From Calditrichales bacterium (GTDB lineage Bacteria > Calditrichota > Calditrichia > Calditrichales > J004): a stretch of DNA of 64,000 nt. The notes under the pieces are model-generated. The model did not search any database. It was given only the letters and a program-made list of their open reading frames with translations, and was not told where the DNA came from. Shown here piece by piece: positions 17,046-42,738 of the stretch. The translations under genes and the position numbers were made by a program. Location of the stretch: the NCBI GenBank assembly GCA_965267575.1, contig OZ254086.1:640001-704000 (forward strand), written 5' to 3'. Numbering within the stretch: the first letter of the stretch is position 1; every line of letters begins with the position of its first letter.

Positions 17046-17077
17046 GTGCTATGGTGTTTAGGTGTTAGTGTGTTAAA
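17046..17077. repeat. 8-bp-period array, GTGYTA family, orphan arm
   Basis: GTGCTATG GTGTTTAG GTGTTAGT GTGTTAAA. Confidence 0.8.
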
Positions 17078-21210: not shown

Positions 21211-23169
21211 TTAAACACTGTTCCTGATCGCCTCCACCGTCGCCGGGTTTTCAAGGCTGCTGACATCGCCGGTGGGCTGGCCGAGGTAGGCGGCGCGGAT
21301 AAGGCGGCGCATCACCTTGGCGTTGCGGGTTTTGGGCAGGGCGGTAGTAAAACGTATCTCTTTGGGCTTCAGCGCTTTGCCCAGGCCGTCCGTAACGCGA
21401 TCCATTAATGCCTTGCGCAGGTCTTCCGTAATTTCCACGCCTTCCTTCAGCACGCAAAAGCCCACAACGGCGTTGTCCTTTTTAGGGTCGGGGACGGCTA
21501 TGGCAGCGGATTCCACCACGGAGGGATGGGCGTTCAGCAGCGCTTCCACTTCCGCCGGGCCCAGCCTTTTGCCGGCCACTTTGATCGTGTCATCGCTGCG
21601 GCCCAGGATGTACCACAAGCCGTCCTTGTCGATGGCGGCAAAGTCGCCGTGCAGCCATACGTTGTCAAAACGGCTCCAGTAAGTATCGATGTAGCGCTGC
21701 TCGTCTTTCCAGAAACCGCGGGTCATACCAATCCACGGTTGGCGGATCACCAGCTCGCCGACGGCGCCGCGCAAGGGTTTGCCATTCTCATCCACCACAT
21801 CGGCGGCCATACCCGGCACCGGCCCGGAAAAGGCGCAGGGTTTCAGCGGTTTGAAAAAATTGCCGCAAACAATACCGCCGCTGATCTCCGTACCACCGGA
21901 GTAATTCAAAATAGGCTTGCGCTTTTCCAGCACATTCTCAAACAGCCACATCCACGATTCCGGATCCCAGGGGCTGCCGGTGCTGCCCACCATACGCAGG
22001 CTGCCCAGGTCGTGTTTGCGCAAAATGTCGCTGCCCTTGTCCTTCAACGCGCGTATCAGCGTGGGCGAAACACCGAGATGCGTCACCTTGTGTTTTTCGA
22101 TAAGCTGCCACAGGCGGCTGTGGTGCGGGTGATCCGGAGCGCCGTCATAAAACAGCATCGATGCGCCAATCGACAGCGAGCCGAACACTTCCCACGGCCC
22201 CATCATCCAGCCCATATCGGTCATCCAGTACATCACCTCGCCGCGTTTCAGGTCCATGCAGTGGTACATGTCCTGTGCGCCTTTAATCGGAAATCCGCAG
22301 TGGGTGTGGACGGCGCCCTTGGGCTTGCCGGTGGTGCCGCTGGTATAAATAATCATGCAGACATCTTCGGCGGAGGTTTTCTCCGTTTCGGCCCGGTCGC
22401 TTTGTCCGGGCACCAGCTTATTCCAAAAATGGTCACGGTTATTTGTCATCGGGCAATCTTCACGTCCGGCGCGACGCACAACAACCTGGTGTTTCACTGT
22501 GGGACAATCGGCGAGCGCTTCATCTGCAGTTTCCTTCATCGGCACCAGCTTGCCGCGACGAAAGGCACCGTCGGCGGAGAACAACGCTTTGGCCCCGGCA
22601 TCATTCAGCCGCGTGGCAATCGCCGAGGCGCCATAGCCACTGAAAAGGGGCAAAATGATTCCGCCAATTTTAATAATAGCCAAAAAGGCAATGGCGAGCT
22701 CGGGAATCATCGGCATGTACAAGCCCACCGCGTCGCCTTTTTTCAGGCCCAGTTCACGCAGGGCGTTGGCGCAGCGGCATACATCGCGATGCAATTCACG
22801 GTAAGTCCATGTTTTGCTGTTGCCCTCTTCACTTTCGTAGCGCAGGGCCACGGTATCAGCTACCTCGGTTTGCTGCCATTTGTCCAGAAGGTTGTGCACG
22901 ATGTTCATGCGGCCGCCGACACACCACTCAGGCCGCTGAATGCCAATTTTCAGATCGACGATTTTTTTATAGGGCGTGTAAAATTCGATGTCCAGGTCTT
23001 TCAATGCCGCATCCCAGAACCAGGCGATATCATCGGTGCTGCGGCGCATCAGTTCGTCATAATCCTTTACGCCATTATTTTCCATAAAGCGCTGCAGATT
23101 GCTTTCCACTATCCACCGTTTATTGGGTTGCCACACGATTTTTTGTCCAAATGGAAAATTTTGGGGCAT
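21211..23169 (-). CDS. AMP-forming acyl-CoA ligase (acetate/acetoacetate-CoA ligase family)
   Basis: YTSGTTGKPKG, WMTDMGWMMG, GRSDD, LPKTRNAKVMRR; start set at MPQNFP because the longer ORF reads through a repeat array. Confidence 0.9.
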   Translation of the reverse strand: MPQNFPFGQKIVWQPNKRWIVESNLQRFMENNGVKDYDELMRRSTDDIAWFWDAALKDLDIEFYTPYKKIVDLKIGIQRPEWCVGGRMNIVHNLLDKWQQTEVADTVALRYESEEGNSKTWTYRELHRDVCRCANALRELGLKKGDAVGLYMPMIPELAIAFLAIIKIGGIILPLFSGYGASAIATRLNDAGAKALFSADGAFRRGKLVPMKETADEALADCPTVKHQVVVRRAGREDCPMTNNRDHFWNKLVPGQSDRAETEKTSAEDVCMIIYTSGTTGKPKGAVHTHCGFPIKGAQDMYHCMDLKRGEVMYWMTDMGWMMGPWEVFGSLSIGASMLFYDGAPDHPHHSRLWQLIEKHKVTHLGVSPTLIRALKDKGSDILRKHDLGSLRMVGSTGSPWDPESWMWLFENVLEKRKPILNYSGGTEISGGIVCGNFFKPLKPCAFSGPVPGMAADVVDENGKPLRGAVGELVIRQPWIGMTRGFWKDEQRYIDTYWSRFDNVWLHGDFAAIDKDGLWYILGRSDDTIKVAGKRLGPAEVEALLNAHPSVVESAAIAVPDPKKDNAVVGFCVLKEGVEITEDLRKALMDRVTDGLGKALKPKEIRFTTALPKTRNAKVMRRLIRAAYLGQPTGDVSSLENPATVEAIRNSV

Positions 23170-23186: not shown

Positions 23187-23299
23187 CGGTCTGGAAGTCT
23201 CGAGGTCGGGGAGTCCTGAGGTCGAGTAGTACTGAAGTCTTTTTGTCCGCCAGTCGCCATCTCGGCTTCAAAACCACAAGACTTCATGACCTCATGACT
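23187..23299. repeat. two opposed 8-bp-period arrays (GTC x9, then GAC x5) downstream of four-helix-bundle gene 1
   Basis: GTC (one GTA) at 23189,197,205,213,221,229,237,245,253; GGC/AAC/GAC at 23264,272,280,288,296. Confidence 0.9.
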
Positions 23300-23716
23300 T
23301 TAAACTATTCTTCCGAAATTTTCATAGCTATAATTAGTATCGCTTACAAAATCATTATTTTTTAAATAATTGATCAATCCCAGTATTTTCGTGCTGCATA
23401 ATTCAGCTTTTTCCTTTAGCCGCACAAATTCGTCTTGGCTGATATATTCACAATCCAAAACGATATAAAGAAGACTTCTAAACTCCATAAGGGAACCATC
23501 AGCAATAGTTAAAAACCGTTTAAACTCTTTATCGGAATAACGCCCAAAGCCTTCTCCAATATTGGCCATGACAGATATCGCCGCTCTGCGAACCTGATCG
23601 GATAAAGCAAAATCTGTTTTCAACTTTGTGCTATTGTTAATCGAATAAATATCTTGGACCAACTCTCTTGCGAGTTGCCAGCATTTCAGCTCTTCAAAGT
23701 TTTTAACTGTCGCCAT
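23300..23716 (-). CDS. four helix bundle protein 1 (23S rRNA-IVP / Avd-like family)
   Basis: FEELKCWQ, DQVRRAAISVMANIGEGFGR, KEF..FL.IA.GSL.E; AT-richer than flanking genes. Confidence 0.93.
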   Translation of the reverse strand: MATVKNFEELKCWQLARELVQDIYSINNSTKLKTDFALSDQVRRAAISVMANIGEGFGRYSDKEFKRFLTIADGSLMEFRSLLYIVLDCEYISQDEFVRLKEKAELCSTKILGLINYLKNNDFVSDTNYSYENFGRIV

Positions 23717-23737
23717 TTAAGACCCCCAAATGTAATC

Positions 23738-23784
23738 CTGACTGCAAGACTCCAAGACCTCCGGACTTCAAGACTTCTCGACAG
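23738..23784. repeat. 8-bp-period array (GAC x6) upstream of four-helix-bundle gene 1
   Basis: GAC at 23740,748,756,764,772,780. Confidence 0.9.
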
Positions 23785-24435: not shown

Positions 24436-25593
24436 TTAGTCTTCGAGCCAGCTGTAGGGGTAATTTCCATCCTCCACTTCTTCGGCGTCTTTGGCAATAT
24501 TTAAGGGCCGGAATGTATCCAGCATCACCGCGTATTCATCGGTTTCCTTCGCGCCGATGGAGCCTTCATATTTTCCTGGATGCGGCCCGTGCGGCAACCC
24601 CGCGGGGTGTATGGTAATCGAGCCTTCGGAAACGCCTTTGCGGCTCATGAAATCGCCTTCCCAGTAGTAGAGCACCTCTTCGCTGTCCACGTTGCTGTGG
24701 GCGTAGGGCGCGGGGATCGATTTCTCGTGGTAGTCAAACAATCGCGGTACAAAGGAGCAAATGACAAAGCCGGGACCGGCAAAGGTTTGATGCACGGGTG
24801 GCGGCTGGTGAATCTTGCCCGTTATGGGCATAAAATCCCGGATGTTAAAAATCCAGGGATAGTAGAAGCCATCCCAGCCAACGACGTCGCAGGGGTTGTG
24901 GGCCAGCACATATTCCTGGATGCCCCGTTGCACACGCACCATGATGCGGAAGTCGCCTTTTTCATCTTTGGCAGCAGCAAAATCCGGCGTGCGGATATCG
25001 CGCTCGCAAAACGGGGCGTGCTCCATCAACTGGCCGAACTTGTTGAAATAACGCTTGGGCGGCGCCACCGGTCCAAAGGATTCGATGATCAGAAAGCGCG
25101 TGTCGCCGGTCTGGTAATGCAGCTTGTACAACGCCCCGCCGGGGATCATGATGTAGTCGCCTTCATGAAATGGCAACTGCCCGAACTGGCTTTCCAGCAT
25201 ACCCTTGCCTTTGTCCACAAAAATCACCTCGTCGGCGTGGGCGTTGCGGTAATAAAAGTCGGCTTCGTCCGCGGGCCGGCAGGTGGACATAATGACATCC
25301 TTGTTGTAGGCCAGAATGCGGCGCCCGCTGACCCAGTTGCCCTTGGGGTCAAATTTGTGCGTCTCCAAATGACGGTGGCGGTGGGTTTCATCGCTGCCGG
25401 GTAATATATGCACCGGGTGCAGCGGTCCCACTTTTTTCACCCGCGTTGGCGGATAAATATGGTACATATTGGAATAGGTGTCGGAAAAGCCCTCACGGCT
25501 CACCAGCTCTTCATAACGCAGATTATTTTTTTCATCGCGATGCTGCGTATGCCGTTTCTGCGGCACATCGCCCAGTTTTTTGTAGTAAGGCAT
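24436..25593 (-). CDS. hmgA: homogentisate 1,2-dioxygenase
   Basis: HQPPPVHQTF, CSFVPR, PYAHSNVDSEEV, HPAGLPHGPHPG. Confidence 0.95.
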   Translation of the reverse strand: MPYYKKLGDVPQKRHTQHRDEKNNLRYEELVSREGFSDTYSNMYHIYPPTRVKKVGPLHPVHILPGSDETHRHRHLETHKFDPKGNWVSGRRILAYNKDVIMSTCRPADEADFYYRNAHADEVIFVDKGKGMLESQFGQLPFHEGDYIMIPGGALYKLHYQTGDTRFLIIESFGPVAPPKRYFNKFGQLMEHAPFCERDIRTPDFAAAKDEKGDFRIMVRVQRGIQEYVLAHNPCDVVGWDGFYYPWIFNIRDFMPITGKIHQPPPVHQTFAGPGFVICSFVPRLFDYHEKSIPAPYAHSNVDSEEVLYYWEGDFMSRKGVSEGSITIHPAGLPHGPHPGKYEGSIGAKETDEYAVMLDTFRPLNIAKDAEEVEDGNYPYSWLED

Positions 25594-25604
25594 GTCCTCT
25601 CCTC

Positions 25605-25640
25605 GTGTTAGGGTACTAGTGTGCTAAAGTGTTAATGTGC
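25605..25640. repeat. 8-bp-period array (GTGYTA) downstream of four-helix-bundle gene 2
   Basis: GTGTTAGG GTACTAGT GTGCTAAA GTGTTAAT GTGC. Confidence 0.9.
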
Positions 25641-25647
25641 GCGGAGA

Positions 25648-26079
25648 TTATTGCAACTCGTTTGCTTCGCTTGCATCATAAAACACTTCAACGTCACTTA
25701 CACCGTCACTTTTACGATTTTTTAAATATTTTAATAGTCCGAGAATACGATTTCGGCAAAGGTCAATTTCATCAGAGAGCGATTCAAAATCGGCATCCGT
25801 TAATATTTTTAAATCTAAAACGATATAGGCCTGGCTTTTTAATTCTGATAATGAACTCTGCGCCATATTGAGGAAGTGAATAAATTCCTTGACGTTGTAG
25901 CGTGCAAAACCCTCCGCGATATTGCTCATAGCGGAAACAGCGGCTCGCCGCATTTGATCCGCCAGTGAATACTTCCTGTCAGTCATTAGTGGTTCAGTGA
26001 TCATGTATATTCGTTTTGTTAAAAACCTACAGCCTTGCCAGGCCTTTAAATCTTCGAAACGCTTAACTATTGCCAACAT
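25648..26079 (-). CDS. four helix bundle protein 2 (23S rRNA-IVP / Avd-like family)
   Basis: FEDLKAWQ, DQMRRAAVSAMSNIAEGFAR, KEFIHFL..A.SSL.E; AGGAGG RBS; AT-rich. Confidence 0.93.
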   Translation of the reverse strand: MLAIVKRFEDLKAWQGCRFLTKRIYMITEPLMTDRKYSLADQMRRAAVSAMSNIAEGFARYNVKEFIHFLNMAQSSLSELKSQAYIVLDLKILTDADFESLSDEIDLCRNRILGLLKYLKNRKSDGVSDVEVFYDASEANELQ

Positions 26080-26091
26080 AGCCTCCTATAT

Positions 26092-26135
26092 GCACACTAA
26101 CACATTAACACTCTAACACTATAACACAATAGCAC
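26092..26135. repeat. 8-bp-period array (TARCAC, reverse complement of the 25605 array) upstream of four-helix-bundle gene 2
   Basis: GCAC ACTAACAC ATTAACAC TCTAACAC TATAACAC AATAGCAC. Confidence 0.92.
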
Positions 26136-26139
26136 TTTC

Positions 26140-27066
26140 TCACCTGCTCACCTTCTGCTCCAGTAGGCCCAGGCCTTCGATTTCAAGTGTGATGGTGTCG
26201 CCGGGTTCAAGCCAGCCGTTAGTGTTTTCGGGGCGCAGCTCCAAAATGCAGCCGCTGCCCACGGTGCCGGAACCGAGAAGGTCTCCGGGGTAAAGGTCCG
26301 CGTCCTGTGAGGCACGGGCAATCATTTCACCAAAAGAATAGTGTATTTCCGACCAGTTGCCGTCGGAGATCAGCTGACCGTTTTTACGGGCGGTCATGCG
26401 TAAATCGTAGCCTTTGTTTTTTTCCTTTCCTTTTAATTCATCGGCAGTCACAAGAAATGGCCCCAGACCCGTGGCAAAATCCTTGCCCTTAGCCGGACCC
26501 AAACCCACGCGCATTTCGCGGCGTTGCAGATCGCGTGCGGACCAGTCATTCAAAACGCAGTAGCCCGCAATATAATTGGCAGATTCTCCAGCTTTAATGT
26601 TGCGACCTCGCTTTCCAATGATACAGCCAATCTCAAGCTCAAAATCCAACTCCGCGGTTGCCTGCGGCTTTTTGATAGTCGCCTTGTGGCCATAAAGCGC
26701 ATGGGGATTTGAAAAATAGAAAACCGGTATCTCGTACCATTCGGGCACTACGTCAAGGTCACGCAAAGCCCGGGCCGTTTTTACATGGCGCTCGAAAGCA
26801 TAGAAGTCGCGAAAATTGGCCGGACGCAGGAGCGGTGGCAGGAAATGAATCTCGCTTTCATTGAGAAGCGCGTCTGCCACAGGCTGCGTTTGCAATTCTT
26901 CAAGTTCCTGAAAACCGGCCGGCCAGTCACGCAAAGCGTCGTCCACACTAAAAGGAACGGCCTGCCGGCCGGCAGCCAGTTTCATCGCATCGTATAGCTG
27001 CCCGCCGATCGCCAATCCAAGACGTACTTCCGCGTAATCGGGCAGCGCATAGTTAAATAACTTCAT
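26140..27066 (-). CDS. fumarylacetoacetate hydrolase family protein
   Basis: RDFYAFERH, LDFELE, NDWSARDLQ, KGKDFA, PGDLLGSGT. Confidence 0.92.
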   Translation of the reverse strand: MKLFNYALPDYAEVRLGLAIGGQLYDAMKLAAGRQAVPFSVDDALRDWPAGFQELEELQTQPVADALLNESEIHFLPPLLRPANFRDFYAFERHVKTARALRDLDVVPEWYEIPVFYFSNPHALYGHKATIKKPQATAELDFELEIGCIIGKRGRNIKAGESANYIAGYCVLNDWSARDLQRREMRVGLGPAKGKDFATGLGPFLVTADELKGKEKNKGYDLRMTARKNGQLISDGNWSEIHYSFGEMIARASQDADLYPGDLLGSGTVGSGCILELRPENTNGWLEPGDTITLEIEGLGLLEQKVSR

Positions 27067-42698: not shown

Positions 42699-42738
42699 GT
42701 GCTACAGTAATAGTGTGTTAGGGTGTTAAGGTGCTTTT
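42699..42738. repeat. 8-bp-period array, GTGYTA family, orphan arm
   Basis: GTGCTACA GTAATAGT GTGTTAGG GTGTTAAG GTGCTTTT. Confidence 0.85.

Follow-up and report, generated by a model that had tools for sequence, protein, structure and literature searches.

A gene of the PF05635 family lies in the fah–hmgA spacer of a Calditrichales bacterium, enclosed by inverted tandem arrays of the 8-nt unit GTGTTANN whose transcript is predicted to fold into a long hairpin with the gene in its loop. This unit, termed here cassette 2, is probably a hairpin cassette of the intervening-sequence type, whose stem would loop out the insert and be cut by RNase III. It was found in a window of 64,000 nt; positions refer to the window unless prefixed by C1, and all features of the operon described here are on the minus strand.

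Cassette 2 in the homogentisate operon

The fah ORF (26140–27066, PF01557) ends with the TGA codon at 26140–26142. The start of the hmgA ORF (24436–25593) occupies 25591–25604, with the SD GAGGAG at 25604–25599 and the ATG at 25593–25591. The cargo gene between them (25648–26079) encodes 143 aa in an intact, full-length ORF preceded by the SD GGAGG (26086–26082). The neighbouring genes encode an FAA hydrolase, homogentisate dioxygenase, a flavin reductase and a glyoxalase-fold dioxygenase. The whole stretch is intact at the DNA level, without joints or variants, in contigs from four runs of one sample.

The gene order hppD-fah-hmgA-flr is conserved among relatives. In the loci of nine of them the fah–hmgA spacer is 37–47 nt (four loci), 70–143 nt (three) or 1272–1273 nt with an unrelated gene (two), and none of these nine spacers contains a PF05635 gene. 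A tblastn search (E 1e-5) with both PF05635 proteins of the operon gave no match in ten relatives' loci. An insertion of cassette 2 into the short spacer between two tyrosine-breakdown genes is supported by this sequence comparison. The site is between fah and hmgA and not in helix 9, 25 or 45 of a 23S rRNA gene; the two LSU genes of the genome are at C1:2121899–2124895 and C1:2127024–2130020. An Rfam scan of the cassette 2 region yielded no family at or near threshold and no rRNA match, and promoter and terminator scans of the region gave chance-level hits only. The same operon holds a further unit, cassette 1 (23189–23774), with a PF05635 gene at 23300–23716 between inverted arrays of another 8-mer of the GAAGTCTT type (5′ arm 23774–23740, 3′ arm 23223–23189).

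The cargo protein matches PF05635 with 107.1 bits (cut-off 33.8, E 6.8e-31) over model positions 1–103 of 106, and TIGR02436 (four helix bundle protein) with 100.9 bits (cut-off 24). With both curated cut-offs passed, it is assigned by its sequence to the "23S rRNA intervening-sequence protein" family. It is related to PDB entry 2GSC (E 9e-18), a solved relative annotated as XCC0516.

Predicted structure of the stem

The 5′ arm (26127–26092) reads GTGTTATA GTGTTAGA GTGTTAAT GTGTTAGT GTGC, and its complement, the 3′ array (25640–25605), reads GCAC ATTAACAC TTTAGCAC ACTAGTAC CCTAACAC. When aligned strand-symmetrically, the 36 positions comprise 28 Watson-Crick pairs, four G·U pairs, one A·C and three other mismatches. 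The original prediction of a 36-nt helix on the sense strand was confirmed by folding calculations: the helix is present in both the MFE and the centroid structures, its pair probability in a 621-nt partition function is 0.85–1.00 at paired positions and ~0.99 overall, and it would loop out the inserted gene. The sense arm duplex (−37.2 kcal/mol) is favoured over 1000 shuffles of the 3′ arm (mean −12.8, sd 3.6, best −27.0; z −6.7) and over the antisense RNA duplex (−28.6 kcal/mol). Because the arms make up little of the 581-nt region, its folding z-scores as a whole do not stand out (−1.21 sense, −0.91 antisense), and they were dropped as uninformative. Cassette 2 thus has the complementary termini forming a long stem around an ORF that characterize ORF-bearing intervening sequences of 23S rRNA.

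As had been noted originally, mismatches are confined to the ends of the 8-mers: the non-pairs fall at unit positions 7–8, 8 and 8, which are free NN positions of the unit, and leave internal loops of 2×2, 1×1 and 1×1. Registers offset by one repeat unit (8 nt) or by two pair nearly equally (64%, 61% and 57% versus 64% identity), so the stem is slippery.

The fah stop codon (26142–26140) and the hmgA SD stand at the base of the stem, in agreement with the original prediction. The 3′ array ends directly at GAGGAG, 11 nt before the hmgA ATG; the first 2 nt of this SD prolong the stem (P ~0.9), and the remainder is paired with P of 0.26–0.54. The 5′ array (26092–26135) does begin 4 nt past the fah stop, as had been stated, if its degenerate first unit GTGCTATT (26135–26128) is counted; however, this unit has almost no predicted pairing with the 3′ arm (P ~0.01), and the paired array begins 12 nt past the stop.

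The stem had also been proposed to hide the ribosome-binding site of its own gene by pairing of GGAGG with the UCUCC directly past the cargo stop codon (25647–25643). Such pairing is possible on paper but has P ~0.11, and a local 6-bp hairpin at 26076–26091 (26091–26086 with 26081–26076, P ~0.7) is preferred. Its loop contains the GAGG of the SD, with P(paired) of ~0.2 for the SD, and its stem contains the ATG (26079–26077) and an in-frame TTG (26076–26074). The distance from arm to ATG is variable among 58 relatives, with a median of 29 nt and just 15 of them at 12 nt or below, and therefore occlusion of the SD is not a design feature of the PF05635 family.

The argument for sense-strand folding from G·U pairs did not survive replication. 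The ratio of G·U to A·C was 81:49 in the first sample of loci (p 0.006) and 17:31 in the replicate (pooled p = 0.20). Similarly, the sense duplex was stabler than the antisense one at 32 loci versus 16 (p 0.03), and then at 7 versus 13 (pooled p 0.27). Both measures, reversed in the independent sample, were rejected as a test of RNA selection in either direction. The case advises caution, since an appealing "RNA signature" of one cassette and one family sample vanished. Both arms are arrays of one core, with fitting shifted registers and mismatches at the NN positions, so their complementarity may arise simply from that.

Inverted arrays around PF05635 genes

Inverted tandem arrays flank all four PF05635 genes of this genome, the arms of the third (C1:4661404) having been read by eye only. 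Indels in the 6-mer arms of the fourth kept its score at 9, short of the threshold, and one of the four genes has GGGAATT arms. Among 82 scored copies of the family, an inverted score of at least 14 was obtained for 58, compared with 8 of 82 in the direct-orientation control and 1 of 82 in shuffles. Inverted arrays surround 23 of 45 non-redundant metagenome copies and 18 of 27 copies in relatives. Locus L119, from a relative of the same order, is a 23S rRNA gene (2473.6 bits with Rfam LSU) interrupted by 454 nt of inserted DNA, in which a PF05635 gene lies between inverted arrays of the heptamer CAAGGNN. In our search of the main texts of openly accessible articles, neither a connection between PF05635 genes and flanking tandem arrays nor a description of such operon cassettes was found.

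As judged from their sequences, the arms share a fixed G-rich-first polarity and an RGTY core across phyla. The 5′ arm has more G than C in 50 of 58 loci, and the dinucleotide GT occurs 271 times in the arms versus 41 occurrences of AC. Of the 58 units, 51 contain GT, and a purine (A or G) stands before it in 47 of these 51. Units repeat every 7 nt in most loci (41), every 8 nt in 14 and every 9 nt in three. The core of the unit is conserved, and base-by-base complementarity is not.

The start of the 5′ arm lies within −10 to +15 nt of an upstream stop codon in 37 of 51 relatives, counted by an open-frame method that also admits shadow frames. Any insert with hairpin ends that lands in a short spacer gives this geometry, and the closeness of the fah stop to the start signals of hmgA is thus a family-wide by-product and not a coupling device. 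The originally proposed restoration of operon continuity is not supported: hmgA is preceded by a strong SD of its own and, in relatives, by a separate spacer, which leaves no translational coupling to be restored. The orientation of neighbouring genes, assessed by the longest open frame (upstream co-oriented in 42 of 58 loci, downstream in 46 of 58), was set aside as too crude and too near the background of adjacent genes.

The array family of the genome

The GTGTTANN family is the largest family of intergenic arrays in the genome, with 74 merged arrays (3 in the control). The pattern of three successive GTGTTANN units has 187 matches (3 in the control) versus 0–3 per genome in 40 relatives; on this sequence count, the arrays are essentially missing from the relatives, and the expansion appears in this lineage only. 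Cassette 2 is the sole gene-bearing copy of the family, its gene being the one of four PF05635 genes of the genome with the GTGTTANN unit. Arrays of the unit GTTATT are expanded in two relatives (113 and 126 matches), each with a PF05635 gene flanked by the same unit; yet relative G017, which also has a PF05635 gene with GTTATT arms, shows 11 matches only.

The GTGTTA arrays abut an ORF border in 67 of 76 cases, whatever the gene, and point away from the nearest ORF; their median distance is 7 nt from the nearest ORF and 163.5 nt from the far one. Arrays of this genome point towards PF05635 genes and away from ordinary genes. The suggestion that GTGTTA arrays wrap ordinary genes as cassettes was rejected, since the arrays belong to spacers and point away from such genes. 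Array pairs within one spacer are present; many arrays of the GTGTTANN family are solo, or face, at the far side of the spacer, an array from a different family, and are therefore unable to form a stem. The spacers are mosaics of several array families and REP-like hairpins, and some array families have no resident PF05635 gene.

The arrays share with intergenic heptamer-type SSRs the tandem units in spacers, the adherence to one ORF border, the fixed polarity and the convergent pairs, the unit being 8 nt and not 7. They share with REP/RAYT-like systems one gene-bearing and many gene-less copies in a single lineage; the gene flanked by the repeat is a PF05635 gene and not a Y1 (IS200-like) transposase.

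Possible mechanism and alternative explanations

The PF05635/TIGR02436 gene of cassette 2 would be placed, in the operon transcript, in the loop of an imperfect helix of ~36 bp formed by the inverted GTGTTANN arrays in the fah–hmgA spacer. The helix would loop out the 0.43-kb insert and be cleaved by RNase III in the manner of rRNA intervening sequences, after which hmgA would keep a short leader beginning at its own SD, so that the insert would be tolerated. We infer transcription across the stem and its cleavage from the DNA sequence. By analogy, cutting of this stem by RNase III is probable, and a gene for this enzyme is present in the genome; the internal loops of the stem might limit cleavage. 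RNase III is described as cleaving the intervening sequence of Coxiella halfway along its 28-bp stem (PMC4990558), and the heptamer-repeat hairpin in the hmw 5′-UTR of H. influenzae is described as a substrate of the same enzyme (PMC12721329).

The original prediction, which is partly supported, missed the identity of the cargo with the intervening-sequence family, and this identity points to processing by RNase III and not to a static bridge. Taken as a rival explanation, it amounts to an unprocessed stem that keeps the gene silent through a covered SD and allows reinitiation at hmgA by ribosomes terminating at fah. The stem base, which lies 12 nt past the fah stop and adjoins the hmgA SD, the local hairpin that holds the cargo start codon, and the four G·U pairs versus one A·C in cassette 2 would fit such a bridge, but we find it unlikely given the low probability of the SD:UCUCC pairing, the SD lying largely unpaired in a loop, and arm-to-SD geometry that is not fixed across the family. 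The spacers of 37–143 nt in relatives and the own SD of hmgA indicate that coupling is not ancestral. A ribosome stopped at fah would cover ~12–15 nt of the sequence that follows, and would open the outer unit of the stem instead of using it. The intact, full-length ORF further argues against permanent silencing. Very improbable, in our opinion, is a coincidence in which slippage generates short tandem arrays in the spacers of this genome generally and the gene landed between two of them, not forming one unit with them. The mosaic spacers and the GTGTTA arrays that abut ORF borders whatever the gene agree with it; however, the layout of a gene between inverted arrays recurs in many phyla with other units and is also present within a 23S rRNA gene, a place that has no spacer arrays to begin with. 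The arrays also point towards PF05635 genes and away from ordinary ones, and the closest sampled homologue (L012, a Cytophagaceae MAG; 50% identity, with none nearer than ~50% found among the genome and metagenome contigs) also has GTGTTAAA arms.

A plausible but less probable alternative places the element at the DNA level: the arrays could be terminal inverted repeats or iteron-like sites for insertion, recombination or copy spread, with RNA pairing incidental. The four-helix-bundle protein may then act on the arrays in trans, which is compatible with the intervening-sequence explanation. The polarity and core conserved across phyla, the conservation of the unit core rather than of base-by-base complementarity, and the G·U asymmetry that was not replicated all argue for it. 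So do the lineage-only expansion of GTGTTANN, cassette 2 as its only gene-bearing copy among 74 merged arrays, and the GTTATT-flanked PF05635 gene in both relatives with that expansion. On the other hand, cassette 2 encodes no nuclease, transposase or recombinase, and no target-site duplication is visible by eye at its ends (outside bases GAAA upstream and GAGGAG downstream, not a direct repeat). Moreover, G017 indicates that a resident gene is not always accompanied by an expansion, and some array families of the genome lack a resident PF05635 gene.

More tentatively, we suggest that PF05635 cassettes could perhaps be the gene-bearing (autonomous) members of widespread array-hairpin elements, with a protein that maintains or spreads the arrays in trans, and gene-less 7–8-nt spacer arrays as their derivatives. 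The latter would be GGGAATC in Xanthomonas, the Nostoc heptamers, TAACTGA in Beggiatoaceae and GTGTTANN here. By analogy, a pentameric four-helix-bundle protein would act on G-rich-first arrays with the RGTY core, much as RAYT on REPINs. If so, cassette 2 would be the master copy of the 74-array GTGTTANN family, and rRNA intervening sequences would be a special case in which the element landed in a tolerant rRNA loop. To our knowledge, the large PF05635 family has no assigned function outside Avd of DGRs, and rRNA intervening sequences have so far been treated as an rRNA oddity. Gene-in-hairpin units of this kind are also wedged in ordinary operons, and their tandem-unit arms have one polarity and core across phyla. 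This joins three puzzles and makes them testable, namely the role of the intervening-sequence protein, the over-representation of 7–8-nt tandem repeats by bacterial genes, and the tolerance of inserts in operons. New observations are the GTGTTANN arrays themselves, with their sole gene-bearing copy, and the fixed arm polarity with the RGTY core.

Comparison with known systems

REP and REPIN elements with a RAYT gene were reportedly described by Bertels and Rainey in 2011. Cassette 2 resembles them in having one gene-bearing copy flanked by the repeat and gene-less copies at dozens of intergenic sites of one lineage. It differs in that its gene is not a Y1 transposase, its repeats are tandem arrays and not single palindromes, and its mobility is putative. 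Avd, the accessory protein of DGRs, is a distant relative in the same four-helix-bundle superfamily; the cargo protein scores 20.5 bits with NF033474, far under the 80-bit cut-off and thus outside this family, and cassette 2 is surrounded by metabolic genes, with neither a reverse transcriptase nor template and variable repeats beside it.

ORF-bearing intervening sequences of 23S rRNA are described for Coxiella burnetii (helix 45, with S23p) and, as cited there, for Leptospira (PMC4990558). They share with cassette 2 the PF05635 gene, an insert of ~0.43–0.53 kb and complementary termini that pair into a stem with the gene in its loop, the stem being 28 bp in Coxiella versus ~36 bp here. The insert of L119, with tandem-heptamer arms, brings the likeness into the same order. 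In contrast to them, cassette 2 resides in a protein-coding operon, fah–hmgA, and its excision by RNase III is putative. Its arms are tandem 8-mer arrays, found gene-less at 74 genome sites, whereas the Coxiella account speaks of complementary termini (PMC4990558). The Coxiella ORF is reported to have no RBS and not to be synthesised in vivo (PMC4990558), while the ORF of cassette 2 is preceded by GGAGG.

Intergenic heptamer arrays were described for Xanthomonas (GGGAATC) and Nostoc (GGGGA(C/T)T) (PMC4692102), and TAACTGA arrays for marine Beggiatoaceae, Cyanobacteria and Bacteroidetes (PMC4679880). Like the arrays of this genome, they are intergenic and close to one ORF whatever its orientation (28 versus 160 nt in Xanthomonas, 7 versus 163.5 nt here), form frequent convergent inverted pairs (70–75 cases in Xanthomonas) and show lineage-specific expansions (PMC4692102); the unit here differs in being 8 nt. 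A link to Xanthomonas is provided by the GGGAATT arms of one PF05635 gene of this genome and by the annotation of 2GSC as XCC0516. The terms "four helix" and "intervening sequence" are absent from the main texts of PMC4692102 and PMC4679880, and therefore the link to the PF05635 family is not made in those texts. The functions proposed there for the arrays are G-quadruplexes or a site for a post-transcriptional regulator (PMC4692102, PMC4679880).

In the hmw1A 5′-UTR of H. influenzae, a tandem array of short units likewise supplies one side of a long hairpin in the mRNA, shortly ahead of a gene, and cutting of this hairpin by RNase III is reported to alter expression of the downstream gene (PMC12721329). 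It differs from cassette 2 in having no gene in the loop, a non-repeat G-rich second arm and a role in phase variation of an adhesin, and its polarity is opposite, with the pyrimidine-rich array on the 5′ side (PMC12721329).

Insertion of cassette 2 between fah and hmgA

Cassette 2, a PF05635 gene with inverted 8-mer arrays, lies on the minus strand in the spacer that follows fah (26140–27066, minus strand; PF01557). The fah stop codon TGA (26142–26140) is followed by GAAA, a degenerate unit GTGCTATT, and the 5' paired arm (26127–26092), which consists of the units GTGTTATA GTGTTAGA GTGTTAAT GTGTTAGT and GTGC. The stretch AUAUAGGAGGCU separates this arm from the cassette ORF (143 codons, 26079–25648), which ends in TAA and is followed by UCUCCGC. 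The 3' array (25640–25605) begins with GCAC followed by ATTAACAC TTTAGCAC ACTAGTAC CCTAACAC, and GAGGAGAGGAC leads to the hmgA ATG at 25593. Both arrays are oriented towards the PF05635 gene. The pattern GTGTTANNGTGTTA (at most one mismatch) has 8 matches in the window versus 0.08 expected, and the stretch is intact at the DNA level in the sequencing-run contigs carrying it.

The spacer is 546 nt long, and 15 nt remain once 531 nt (26135–25605) are removed. The gene order hppD-fah-hmgA-flr is kept in ten relatives from other genera (hmgA about 70% identical). Nine of these loci have a measurable fah-hmgA spacer, the tenth having no fah within reach: it is 37–47 nt in four, 70, 103 and 143 nt in three, and 1272–1273 nt in two, where it holds an unrelated membrane-protein gene. 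Neither operon PF05635 protein had a match in the ten loci (tblastn, E 1e-5). By this comparison, cassette 2 is an insertion into the fah-hmgA spacer. Operon junctions in relatives hold unrelated inserts, and therefore these spacers accept foreign genes. None of these inserts, named by eye, has array arms: besides the membrane-protein gene (L002:227–1500), there are (L005:2650–3376 and L006:2662–3970) a small two-gene module, which resembles toxin-antitoxin genes, and, at the hmgA-flr junction, a possible outer-membrane protein.

Stem formation and ribosome-binding sites

The 36-position complementarity of the arms holds in a strand-symmetric alignment, with 28 Watson-Crick pairs, four G.U, one A.C and three other mismatches; as originally predicted, non-pairs are confined to the final one or two nucleotides of an 8-mer. 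The arm-arm helix is present in both the MFE and the centroid sense fold, and only partially in the antisense fold. Partition-function folding of 621 nt gives units 2–5 probabilities of 0.85–1.00 of pairing with the 3' arm at the paired positions; the first unit, GTGCTATT, does not pair with it (about 0.01). The sense duplex, at –37.2 kcal/mol, is more stable than all 1000 duplexes with a shuffled 3' arm (mean –12.8, s.d. 3.6, best –27.0) and than the antisense RNA duplex (–28.6 kcal/mol), and thus the helix is favoured over both. Folding z-scores of the whole region (–1.21 sense, –0.91 antisense, –1.26 with DNA parameters) are uninformative. The stem is slippery, its complementarity deriving from a 6-nt core common to the units: over a wider region, registers offset by 8, 16 and –8 nt match at 64%, 61% and 57%, versus 64% in the predicted register. 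A stem of this strength would loop out the insert and keep fah and hmgA adjacent.

Concealment of the cassette gene's ribosome-binding site (SD) by GGAGG:UCUCC pairing, also proposed, is possible on paper but has a probability of only about 0.11 in the folding model, and this SD is paired with a probability of about 0.2 overall. A local 6-bp hairpin (26091–26086 with 26081–26076, probability about 0.7) would hold ATG and TTG in its stem, with GAGG in the loop. The hmgA SD lengthens the long stem by its first two bases (about 0.9), and its remainder is paired at 0.26–0.54. The suggested restoration of fah-hmgA coupling is unsupported or generic, close contact with neighbouring genes being general among PF05635 cassettes.

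The PF05635 family and its array-bracketed genes

The cassette 2 ORF belongs to PF05635, "23S rRNA-intervening sequence protein" (E 6.8e-31), and to TIGR02436, "four helix bundle protein" (100.9 bits). Among solved structures, PDB 2GSC, an entry with five chains, is a relative (E 9e-18); the match to the DGR Avd model is weak (20.5 bits, cut-off 80). The family is present in 40 of the 41 genomes searched. The genome under study has four members, all bracketed by inverted tandem arrays with a different unit at each: GAAGTCTT-like 8-mers, GTGTTANN 8-mers, GGGAATT 7-mers and GATCAT-like 6-mers. One is the second PF05635 gene of the operon (23300–23716, minus strand), 45% identical to that of cassette 2. 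Its cassette (cassette 1, 23189–23774, minus strand) has extra units, AGTCATGA GGTCATGA AGTCTTGT and so on (about 23298–23262), between the stop codon and the inverted 3' arm; this run is oriented as the 5' arm and could replace it in pairing, giving alternative structures. The called GTG start of the downstream gene (23277) falls inside cassette 1, and translation more likely starts at an ATG near 23168 that follows AAGGA.

Among 80 PF05635 loci of many phyla (genome_contigs sample, at most 50% identity), 79 were scorable; together with three of the genome's own four, 58 of 82 copies reached an inverted flank match score of at least 14, versus 8 in the direct-orientation control and 1 for the best of five shuffles. 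The inverted-array score was also passed by 18 of 27 copies in same-class relatives and by 23 of 45 non-redundant metagenome copies (76 of 80 loci scorable).

The unit period is 7 in 41 of the 58 loci, 8 in 14 and 9 in three. The 5' arm is G-rich (G>C in 50 of 58 loci; GT 271 versus AC 41); GT occurs in 51 of 58 consensus units, with A or G before it in 47 of these and T after it in 30. This polarity is a property of the element and not of its orientation relative to the gene, since an inverted repeat reads alike from either strand. The 5' arm starts within –10 to +15 nt of the upstream stop codon in 37 of 51 loci (median 1 nt; the method admits some shadow frames). The distance from the arm to the cassette ATG varies widely (median 29 nt; at most 12 nt in 15 of 58 loci), as does that between the stop codon and the 3' arm (median 15 nt). 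Because the former distance is tight and the latter two vary, close contact with neighbouring genes is general to PF05635 cassettes, whereas a fixed SD-occluding geometry is not.

Interpretation of the hairpin cassette

In a same-order relative (locus L119), a 23S rRNA gene (Rfam LSU, 2473.6 bits) is split by a 454-nt insert (L119:1451–1904), at about position 1252–1265 of the studied genome's LSU, in which inverted CAAGGNN heptamer arrays enclose a PF05635 gene. The insert is a bona fide rRNA intervening sequence (IVS) with tandem-array arms, and therefore the operon cassettes and a true IVS share one architecture. The Coxiella burnetii IVS has a 28-bp terminal stem, cut mid-stem by RNase III, and an S23p ORF reportedly not synthesised in vivo (PMC4990558); a heptamer-array hairpin in the Haemophilus influenzae hmw 5'-UTR is described as an RNase III substrate (PMC12721329). 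Cassette 2 is best read as an IVS-type hairpin cassette, probably tolerated in the operon via RNase III processing. An RNase III gene is present in the genome, and the enzyme would cleave the cassette 2 stem. The original observation stands, and its interpretation was partly right.

The arrays may have a role at the DNA level. G.U and A.C mismatches were counted in helices located by a strand-symmetric score. In the first set of loci, G.U pairs were in excess (81 versus 49, p 0.006; p 0.043 minus one locus giving 10:1) and the sense duplex was the more stable in 32 loci versus 16 (p 0.03). An independent second set reversed both results (17 versus 31; 7 loci versus 13), and pooled counts are 98 versus 80 (p 0.20) and 39 versus 29 (p 0.27). 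G.U pairs therefore fail as an RNA signature, and the 4:1 excess in cassette 2 is no evidence of sense-RNA constraint, since the pooled asymmetry is not significant.

Cassette 2 may act as a master copy. The pattern of three GTGTTANN units (at most two mismatches) has 187 matches in the genome versus 3 for a control, and 0–3 in each of 40 relatives. The matches merge into 74 arrays (77 by another definition). Of 76 arrays, 67 are oriented away from the nearest ORF, at 29 starts and 38 stops; this ORF lies at a median of 7 nt versus 163.5 nt for the far one. For the three remaining PF05635 genes, the arm units recur elsewhere in 13, 3 and 7 arrays (controls 0). Matches to GTTATT arrays are numerous in two relatives (113 and 126), each of which has a PF05635 gene flanked by this unit, yet a third with such a gene has only 11 matches.

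Border-hugging and convergent pairing of the same kind are on record for Xanthomonas, with GGGAATC heptamers (28 versus 160 nt; 70–75 inverted pairs; PMC4692102), and for TAACTGA repeats in Beggiatoaceae (PMC4679880); the main text of neither paper mentions the PF05635 family. The literature searched, supplements apart, yielded no account of tandem arrays around PF05635 genes or of such genes within operons.

Solo arrays, mosaic spacers and other cargo

Solo GTGTTANN arrays at 17046–17077 and 42699–42738 (both plus strand) each lie 6 nt to the right of a minus-strand ORF, and no complementary partner of the unit was seen in the same spacer. Several array families, together with REP-like hairpins, make up the genome's spacers as mosaics, and some spacers hold gene-less hairpins having arms of the cassette kind. 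In examples (G000:C1 3223150–3223500, 520870–521095 and 2578185–2578560), the modules are ordered as an outer GTGTTA/TAACAC array, GATCAT-type 6-mer arrays and a REP-like hairpin (ATCCCGG...CCGGGAT). Some spacers have a different array family at each border, the G-rich array always on the left and the C-rich on the right.

Just upstream of hemB, a 125-aa PD-(D/E)XK nuclease gene (PF13366, 144.8 bits; L203:36–634, G000:C1:2260935–2261533) is bracketed by inverted 9-mer arrays (CATGAAGNN) with 33-nt arms, 88% complementary; a second cargo family is therefore packaged in array hairpins as well. Inverted repeats of 74 nt, 85% complementary, flank a 97-aa GIY-YIG gene (PF01541, 58.8 bits; L202:186–781, G000:C1:4255885–4256480). 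Around these repeats are two outer layers of inverted 8-mer arrays, of the AGTGATGA and GGTAACGG types, which enclose a sugar-transferase gene as well.
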